A stretch of DNA of 46,706 nt from a bacterium. Lineage in GTDB: Bacteria; Patescibacteriota; Minisyncoccia; Phycocordibacterales; UBA9973. Both the position numbers and the translations under genes were made by a program. Shown here one piece after another: positions 33,668 through 37,080 of the stretch. The stretch lies in contig JAIXRY010000009.1 of the NCBI GenBank assembly GCA_027484965.1, positions 1-46,706 on the forward strand, written 5' to 3'. Position 1 is the first letter of the stretch, and every line of letters begins with the position of its first letter. The notes below the pieces were generated by a model, which was not told the DNA's origin, searched no databases, and was given only the letters and a program-made list of their open reading frames with translations.

Positions 33668-37080
<3,413 letters not shown>

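Follow-up and report, generated by a model that had tools for sequence, protein, structure and literature searches.

Exact copy of 23S rRNA helix 69 in the P6 extension of an L2593 group I intron from a Patescibacteriota genome

How does a letter-perfect copy of 23S rRNA helix 69 come to lie in an intron of the very gene that helix 69 belongs to, and what keeps it identical? The question is raised by a 46,706-nt stretch of DNA (contig JAIXRY010000009.1 of assembly GCA_027484965.1, hereafter the window) from a bacterium of the Phycocordibacterales (GTDB: Patescibacteriota; Minisyncoccia; UBA9973), here called G000. A reading made from the letters of the window only, the sequence-only reading, had pointed out the copy and proposed as its origin a target of homing endonucleases, a scar where an endonuclease gene or nested intron had been lost, or a mimic of helix 69 on the intron RNA.

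The 21-nt sequence CGGCCGTAACTATAACGGTCC was found exactly twice in the window by string search, once in the native gene and once in the intron (Table 1), and no third site appeared when up to two mismatches were allowed. None of 100 dinucleotide shuffles held two such matches, and a repeat search of the window also recovered the pair as repeat family D1; the identity of the two sites, as claimed from the sequence, is exact. The native copy stands in the 23S gene as ...GAATGT, the copy and TAAGGTAGCGAA, and presumably corresponds to C1905-C1925 in E. coli numbering, i.e., helix 69 and one base on each side, by alignment to the 23S consensus, with which the earlier naming of the 21-mer as helix 69 agrees. 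The intron copy of the helix 69 sequence GGCCGUAACUAUAACGGUCC matches the native one in 21/21 positions and is predicted to form a stem-loop both in isolation and in the whole intron. Native helix 69 lies 981 bp upstream of the copy on the same strand. The copy sits within the domain V intron and not in domain IV H68-H70, and its flanks are unlike the native flanks (3/9 and 2/9 identical), with a sharp stop of identity on both sides.

Across the whole 796-kb genome (17 contigs), the 21-mer is the sole exact match of at least 15 nt to the P6 extension, and the next-longest is 14 nt, which is chance level for the size and base composition of the genome. The extension as patchwork filler taken from nearby DNA was therefore rejected. 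Compared with the fetched loci, the extension gave only chance matches of 12-14 nt outside helix 69, and a local inverted match within the intron (36483-36496/36585-36598, 13/14) is marginal.

A repeat within one gene of a metagenome-assembled genome could be suspected to be an assembly artefact. Contigs were compared from three DNA runs of three studies other than the possible source study and from one RNA run. A 563-nt contig of DNA run X5, hence from an independent study, spans 36267-36829 and reproduces the whole intron with 0 differences and 0 gaps. The copy is bordered on either side by intron sequence, and these two flanks pair with each other; 21 nt is shorter than the word length usually behind chimeric joins. 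An artefact is hardly conceivable on this evidence, and the helix 69 copy is a true second copy.

The Rfam match to the 23S gene is about 500 nt longer than the model, and comparison with the consensus reveals a 475-nt insertion between ...AACGU and CGUGAGACAG, which we take to follow U2593 (E. coli numbering, by alignment to the consensus). The 5' exon ends with T36320 and the intron with G36795, the U/G pattern of group I introns, and in three runs, contigs of relatives that lack the intron pass straight from 36320 to 36796, giving the same boundaries. Since this exon-exon joint was also found in DNA runs, it comes from intron-less relatives; in the RNA run (X16), no contig lay on 36346-36768. 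The Rfam group I model RF00028 matched 36440-36739 (model 4-253) with 22.3 bits and an E value of 0.0011, and with 18.6 bits in a wider search, both below the gathering score of 50. Because the alignment displays P3, P4, P5, P6, the J6/7-P7 element GUAGAGACUAAAC, P8, the AUAUAGUCC element and P9, and because a homologue at L2593, the intron of G050, exceeds gathering with 53.1 bits (the other eight loci searched with the model had no match at gathering), the insertion is treated as a group I intron whose score may have been lowered by large peripheral insertions. Consensus alignment, intron-less joints and the Rfam elements agree with what had been read from the sequence at L2593.

Of the helices that could span the 5' splice site, the one with the best support has U36320 paired to A36400 and not to G, and a compensatory change beside the site is present in genomes G002 and G003. 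A 4-bp alternative that offers a U-G pair, found by eye, joins 36317-36320 with 36466-36469. Nearly all of the final 13 bases of the exon are able to pair with the intron at GTTTGAACCC (36404-36413), which has a near repeat, CTTGAACCC, at 36395-36403 (region considered, 36308-36413). Inverted repeats bracket the 23S gene (33646-33669/37078-37101, 24 nt, 92%) as well as the 5S gene (37103-37131/37223-37251, 29 nt, 86%), as usual processing stems do.

Table 1. Features of the window and of loci in other genomes and metagenomes (G, genome; C, contig; L, locus)
Feature	Position	Strand	Basis and remarks
23S rRNA gene, host of the intron	33662..37087	+	Rfam LSU_rRNA_bacteria, 2433 bits, full model 1-2925
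Native helix 69: the 21 nt shared with the intron copy; native TAAGGTAGCGAA comes next	35631..35651	+	String match, repeat family
Insertion after U2593 treated as a group I intron, 475 nt, ORF-less	36321..36795	+	23S consensus alignment; intron-less contigs; Rfam Intron_gpI
26-bp hairpin at the intron 5' end, P1-region extension filling the P1 loop	36333..36386	+	Inverted repeat I2; fold
P6 and its extension: P6 36543-36557/36653-36667, P6a 36559-36570/36635-36646	36543..36667	+	Rfam alignment, fold, run comparison
P6b, first side hairpin of the predicted three-way junction	36581..36612	+	Fold
P6c, second (last) side hairpin, the helix 69 copy: stem 36613-36618/36626-36631, 7-nt loop 36619-36625	36612..36632	+	String match, folds, G084 homologue
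Catalytic core 3' of P6: J6/7-P7 5' strand gtagagactaaac, P3', P8 36692-36696/36701-36705, J8/7, P7 3' strand tagtc 36713-36717	36670..36717	+	Rfam alignment; conserved in all relatives aligned
Exact 20-mer, intergenic	L088, G663:C4:4180-4202	-	Order census; inverted repeat encloses copy
Exact 20-mer, intergenic	L090, G579:C43:1880-1902	+	Order census; inverted repeat encloses copy
Exact 20-mer, intergenic	L091, G662:C1:226279-226301	-	Order census; inverted repeat encloses copy
Extra-ribosomal copy outside the order	L070 2476-2495 (G498)	-	
Extra-ribosomal copy outside the order	L071 2488-2507 (G499)	+	Element also in L068 (= L038)
Extra-ribosomal copy outside the order	L067 106-128	-	Metagenome scan
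L1931 introns just after helix 69	L023 (G087), L031 (G045), L072 (G499), L077/L079 (G507, G525)		
Loci with U1926A reading GGTCCAAAGGTAGCG	L037, L041, L047, L050, L055, L057-L059, L061, L062 and others		

The copy had been placed in a P6 peripheral extension closed by gaggagagtgag/ctcacactcctc, and fold and Rfam alignment agree on this position. In the group I model, the P6 loop holds a 99-nt insertion that includes the copy, compared with 7 nt in the consensus, and the closing helix (P6a in Table 1) is paired in 11/12 positions by sequence and fold. The region 36541-36670 folds at -40.3 kcal/mol (z -5.9), and 0/200 shuffles were as stable. In the fold of the extension, which the fold of the whole intron repeats, a long P6/P6a stem (36543-36570 with 36635-36667) carries at its tip a three-way junction with the side hairpins P6b and P6c, the latter being the helix 69 copy. 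No counterpart of P6b was found in the P6 regions of relatives.

Introns in the runs that are almost the same elsewhere differ in their P6 extension. A 1248-nt contig of run X7 matches 35634-36543 and 36662-36878, while 75 other letters replace the intervening 118 nt; its intron has an extra 26 nt at 36518-36521 and 20 nt at 36691-36705. In run X8, a 524-nt contig matches 36292-36542 (two other letters) and 36668-36819 (none), with about 92 other letters between. Two genomes of one genus of the same family, G025 and G058, carry long P6 extensions with a base like that of G000, ATTTTTTTGAGGAG...CCTCCTCT... The base agrees with theirs in 25/30 and 26/29 positions on the 5' side and in 24/35 and 25/34 on the 3' side, whereas the introns as wholes are 58% alike. 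With its congener G001, G000 shares only 15/31 and 17/34 positions in P6 and is 87% identical elsewhere in the intron. The extension is thus a mosaic. Because the P6 base is closer to G025 and G058 than to G001, and because of the replacements in X7 and X8, these comparisons show the P6 extension as a cassette that has a history of its own and is exchanged between intron alleles. The peripheral loops of the intron in general, with the insertions in X7, are swapped in the manner of cassettes.

Anchors bracket P6 directly in 13 related introns, and its length there lies between 12 and 285 nt; in the other 7 of the 20, the first anchor lies further upstream, and five P6 regions were re-extracted, including that of G084, which is outside the 20. 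The P6 loop of the L2593 intron of G046 (L012) holds an 84-aa frame, whose best Pfam match, DUF5659, stays below the cut-off (16.4 bits against 23.6). The P6 of G047 was considered as a tRNA-like piece and as a nested intron, and both were rejected, as ARAGORN predicted 0 genes in six loci and a single group I match spans P6.

The intron was found in all four genomes of the genus by BLAST among 101 relatives, and it is widespread in the family. The helix 69 copy is absent from all three congeners in the intron alignment. The intron of G001 aligns over its full length (81%) and has a different extension of about 70 nt without helix 69, and those of G002 and G003 have only short P6 hairpins. Among 20 related L2593 introns, whose available flanks are unequal in length, only that of G000 shares at least 14 nt with the flanking rRNA. 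The sequence-only reading had called for a search of CPR 23S introns for rRNA fragments; the 19 other related introns gave none of at least 14 nt, and a further intron, that of G084, held the exact 20-mer.

G084 is a member of the same order but of another family. On its contig C15, the 3' part of a 23S gene is interrupted at the same site by a 493-nt intron, running TCAG...ACATG between exons ...GGGTTCAGACCGT and CGTGAGACAG. The P6 extension of this intron holds the exact 20-mer GGCCGTAACTATAACGGTCC, 20/20 identical to that of G000 and in the homologous position, in an extension closed by GAGCTTTATAG/CTATAAAGTTC and GCGCGGTGAGGA/TCCTCACCTCGCCGC, and it is predicted to be a hairpin in a multi-branch junction. 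Outside the hairpin, the two introns agree in 214/365 aligned positions (58.6%) of a pairwise alignment with 198 gapped columns. At that background rate, 20 straight matches would be expected with a probability of 0.586^20, about 2e-5, and the hairpin is the longest identical block between the two introns, every block of the core being shorter. The hairpin is therefore conserved in excess of its surroundings. Its immediate flanks are alike (TAACCAC and TAACCCT before it, AAC and TAC after it), and the native-like stretch has different limits, 1905-1925 in G000 and 1906-1927 in G084. The native helix 69 of G084 is missing from its assembly.

Where G000 has the copy, equally long hairpins occupy P6 in G025 and G058, GGCAGTACTTTTTGCTGTCC and GACAGTATATATTGCTGTCC, which are 13/20 identical to helix 69. 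Their fourth stem pair has changed on both sides, from C-G to A-T, and the 5' flank (CAACCTC in G025) resembles TAACCAC and TAACCCT. A same-size hairpin at P6c is, judging by these alignments, a resident part of one P6 cassette type in the intron family. Neutral descent of P6c from one old copy was rejected on account of the 20/20 identity against 58.6% elsewhere and the seven changes in G025 and G058.

The sequence-only reading had also allowed for a one-off duplication, absent from all related introns. Such a single neutral accident, a 21-nt duplication in the G000 lineage, would fit the absence of the copy from three congeners and from 140 other genomes of the family and the lack of any other rRNA fragment of at least 14 nt in the 19 other related introns. 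Against it stand the same 20-mer at the homologous position of the L2593 intron of G084 and the positional homologues in G025 and G058; a wrong G084 contig is unlikely, given that intron helices, with both strands paired, enclose the copy in it. We regard the accident as very improbable.

The occurrence of such copies was surveyed with a pattern consisting of the exact 20-mer followed by NNB, i.e., a non-native third base, which is blind to diverged copies and to copies that run on into TAAGG, so that the counts are lower bounds. The pattern was present in 1/141 genomes of a family sample and in 1/391 genomes of a class sample, of which only 19 belong to the order of G000, and in both cases the genome was G000 itself. 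In an order sample, 5/401 genomes had the pattern, three of them outside rRNA genes. In a phylum sample, the exact 20-mer was present in 76/401 genomes, and more than one copy was seen only in G000 (n = 2) and G461 (n = 32). The copies of G461 are spread over many very short contigs and look like binned rRNA fragments of several organisms. A sarcin-ricin loop pattern intended as a control was uninformative, as 85/401 genomes matched once each with the native variants CCGGG/CCGAG.

A scan of one genome per species (20-mer, then a non-T base) returned 28 loci, mostly native genes with U1926A or single-base indels. A number of genomes labelled Parcubacteria, Paceibacteria or Wolfebacteria read GGTCCAAAGGTAGCG, with A in place of the otherwise universal U at 23S position 1926. 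Two of the 28 loci, L038 (G499) and L043 (G498), are intergenic copies without rRNA nearby; the G498 and G499 copies have 25 nt in common, the 20-mer and AATTG. Together with the copies from the order census and from a metagenome (Table 1), these are extra-ribosomal, and all are enclosed by inverted repeats; T-runs follow some of the copies. The G663 copy continues on its 5' side with 12 more native-like bases of a foreign type, and the G579 copy lies about 150 nt behind a gene for a large serine recombinase and before a hibernation-factor gene. In several extra-ribosomal copies, the extra 5' native-like bases fit other bacteria and not the host's own gene. In G498, native helix 69 (L081, G498:C5) reads GGCCATAAC... 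with a stem mismatch, while its extra-ribosomal copy is canonical, and the 5' flank of that copy has no match to the 23S gene of G498.

Transcription signals were also considered for these units. The G498 copy stands behind TTGACA-17-TAATAT, and promoter-like hexamers with a 15-nt spacer accompany the G663 copy; promoter and terminator scans around two extra-ribosomal copies gave nothing above shuffles. No Rfam family matched the extra-ribosomal loci and no conserved neighbours of the copies were found. The copies had no counterpart in congeners of the same sample, each being species-specific, and a search for homologues of the G498 unit in 40 relatives matched only native helix 69. A scan of viral contigs gave 0 hits. 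The extra-ribosomal copies are an unexplained pattern that bears on the reading of the intron hairpin as an RNA mimic.

In the I-CreI intron, the endonuclease gene is located in P6, the place of the copy in G000. The sequence-only reading had considered a scar left by the loss of an endonuclease gene or nested intron, a view that found no backing: the intron has no frame longer than 59 aa, LAGLIDADG_1 (PF00961), the one endonuclease family searched by profile, had no match in the genome or in the three congeners, and no remnant of a nested intron or endonuclease was seen in 21 L2593 introns. LAGLIDADG_1 was present in 17 of the 101 relatives, and none of the 12 loci inspected was in an L2593 intron; they were in L1917 (G012), L1931 (G087), 2498-2576 (G045, which carries an additional L1931 intron), downstream of 2594 or outside the anchors. 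Relatives with a LAGLIDADG ORF or a second intron at the P6 spot, which had also been proposed for searching, were thus not encountered among the L2593 introns and loci inspected. In G012 (L026), of the same family as G000, the L1917 intron between GTAACTAT and AACGGTCC encodes a 204-aa LAGLIDADG_1 frame. An intron in a metagenomic locus (L065) begins right after C1925. The fixed right end of the ectopic copies (1925-1927) was considered as the mark of an endonuclease cut and rejected, as it is forced by the search pattern, a 20-mer ending at 1925 and followed by NNB.

How, then, is the identity to helix 69 kept? We rank recopying from the rRNA gene first, an RNA mimic second and a homing site third, and none of them is demonstrated. 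On the sequence comparisons, the likeliest origin of P6c is templated copying in short patches, with the rRNA gene as the source, a reading that we hold tentatively and at somewhat short of an even chance. The resident P6c hairpin would be a quasi-repeat of helix 69 able to prime copying, as the same-length hairpins with like flanks in G025 and G058 imply; gene conversion or template switching between this quasi-repeat and native helix 69, 981 bp upstream, could then have recopied P6c repeatedly, in at least two lineages (G000 and G084), into helix 69 letter for letter. The copy would be tolerated as a self-contained hairpin on the periphery of the ribozyme, and the same kind of DNA-level process might keep producing short-lived helix 69 copies in the order. 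The different native-like limits in G000 and G084 fit separate copying events, and the patchy distribution at the species level together with further exact copies elsewhere in the order fits recopying as well. The comparisons show that the copy exists, where it lies, how it is predicted to fold, that it recurs, that it is conserved in excess and that its cassette is a mosaic; we infer how it was copied and that no function depends on its precise letters. Several points weigh against recopying: there is no microhomology at the junctions beyond the hairpin ends, conversion between repeats of about 20 nt is inefficient and no event has been seen directly, and selection for exact identity to helix 69 fits the same data. 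Since G025 and G058 keep the hairpin structure, P6c is more than filler; in two extra-ribosomal copies, promoter-like hexamers precede the hairpin and T-runs follow it, a hint that they may be expressed as RNAs. The identity of the G084 copy to its own helix 69 is uncheckable on that assembly, and the census, which requires the exact 20-mer and a non-native third base, leaves diverged or longer copies uncounted.

Selection for exact identity implies a reader of the sequence, either a helix 69-specific protein at the RNA level or a LAGLIDADG enzyme at the DNA level. If the reader acts on RNA, the exact stem-loop on the P4-P6 domain would be a mimic that binds a factor recognising helix 69, such as a pseudouridine synthase resembling RluD or some other factor of 50S assembly or of the subunit interface, and would help folding or tie splicing to subunit assembly. 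The 20/20 identity of two otherwise 58.6% alike introns includes stem positions that are able to covary, as they did in G025 and G058, which suggests a sequence-specific reader; the hairpin is predicted to fold on its own, whether the extension or the entire intron is considered; RRF and an RluA-family synthase (nearest named model RluD, gene at a calculated position of G000:C15:13688-14452) are encoded in the genome; and exact helix 69 hairpins occur in intergenic units that inverted repeats close and that in some cases show promoter-like sequences and T-runs. However, the hairpin is missing in congeners and near-identical strains and hence dispensable, RlmH was not found in the genome, and the RluD assignment, with 126.5 bits against a cut-off of 351, concerns a protein without the N-terminal part of the profile. 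The intergenic copies are species-specific and without an Rfam match, and the promoter scans do not exceed shuffles. We consider the mimic possible, if rather unlikely. A broader form of it, in which the helix 69 look-alikes of this CPR order are RNA decoys or handles, seems unlikely from the sequence patterns available: the intron hairpin would recruit a helix 69-specific factor to P4-P6 to assist or time splicing, and the intergenic units (G663, G579, G662, G498, G499 and L067) would be small RNAs titrating the same factor or a helix 69-directed attacker. If the reader acts on DNA, the copy would be an ectopic target of a helix 69-specific LAGLIDADG enzyme of the L1917 type, as a landing pad, an empty site or a site kept identical by repair from native helix 69 after cleavage. 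The copy covers the surroundings of L1917 in both introns (about -12 to +8 around position 1917 in G000, -11 to +10 in G084), a homing site of this type being some 20-22 bp with the insertion point at its centre, and L1917 or L1931 introns occur in the same family and order (G012, G087, G045 and several others). Positions 1917, 1931 and 2593 are listed among the LAGLIDADG_1 sites of CPR 23S genes (PMC11270868), and ectopic copies are concentrated in the intron-rich order (5/401 genomes against 1/391 in the class sample, that one being G000). Yet neither G000 nor its congeners have LAGLIDADG_1, the 21 L2593 introns lack a nested intron or endonuclease remnant, a decoy protects nothing when native helix 69 in the same gene is an equally good target, and no route is known by which precise excision would leave such a scar. 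This places a homing site among the quite unlikely explanations, below both the mimic and its broader form.

Parallels exist in several known systems. The chloroplast Cr.LSU intron with I-CreI occupies the same 23S insertion site and has a peripheral loop as the place of its cargo; its cargo is an endonuclease gene, whereas the G000 intron carries a ribosomal hairpin within a three-way junction that codes for nothing. In mitochondria, some group I introns recruit tRNA synthetases via tRNA-like features, as with the CYT-18 tyrosyl-tRNA synthetase and the P4-P6 domain. The parallel would hold if the helix 69 hairpin, likewise on P4-P6, binds a helix 69-specific host factor; CYT-18 relies on mimicry of shape only, whereas in G000 the sequence is identical to the host RNA and the partner is hypothetical. 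Leaders of ribosomal-protein mRNAs carry diverged rRNA mimics upstream of the regulated gene and bind r-proteins, and they share with the G000 intron a copy-like image of an rRNA site in another transcript; to our knowledge, helix 69 is not an r-protein site. In the invasion model for endonuclease genes, reportedly put forward by Loizos, Tillier and Belfort in 1994, an intron loop resembling the exon homing site is the entry point; unlike in this model and in twintrons, the G000 intron has neither an endonuclease gene nor a nested intron.

Among the closest systems are the introns at position 2593 of CPR 23S genes (site 23IS12; Tsurumaki et al. 2024, PMC11270868), which share the host gene and the site, and the Rfam alignment gives the G000 intron a putative group I core P3-P9. 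As that article describes them, LAGLIDADG_1 genes are typical cargo of 23IS12 introns, whereas the G000 intron is ORF-less. Embedded rRNA fragments are not mentioned in the text consulted, although the supplementary tables may list such introns. With the same limit, no description of an intron bearing an exact copy of an rRNA helix was found in the literature searched on group I and CPR rRNA introns. That rRNA genes of CPR bacteria contain group I introns is established; an intron holding, letter for letter, a functional centre of the ribosome that it interrupts is not described in the literature searched.

The hairpin is perfect in two introns that share 59% of their other letters. If recopying is true, these introns offer a clear example from nature of a ribozyme shaped by gene conversion over very short patches, and also of the modular exchange of its peripheral domains. 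If selection is true, no earlier intron would have been seen to bear an rRNA mimic exact in sequence, and the hairpin would give direct access to the question of how ribosome assembly and the introns of single-copy rRNA genes are coordinated.
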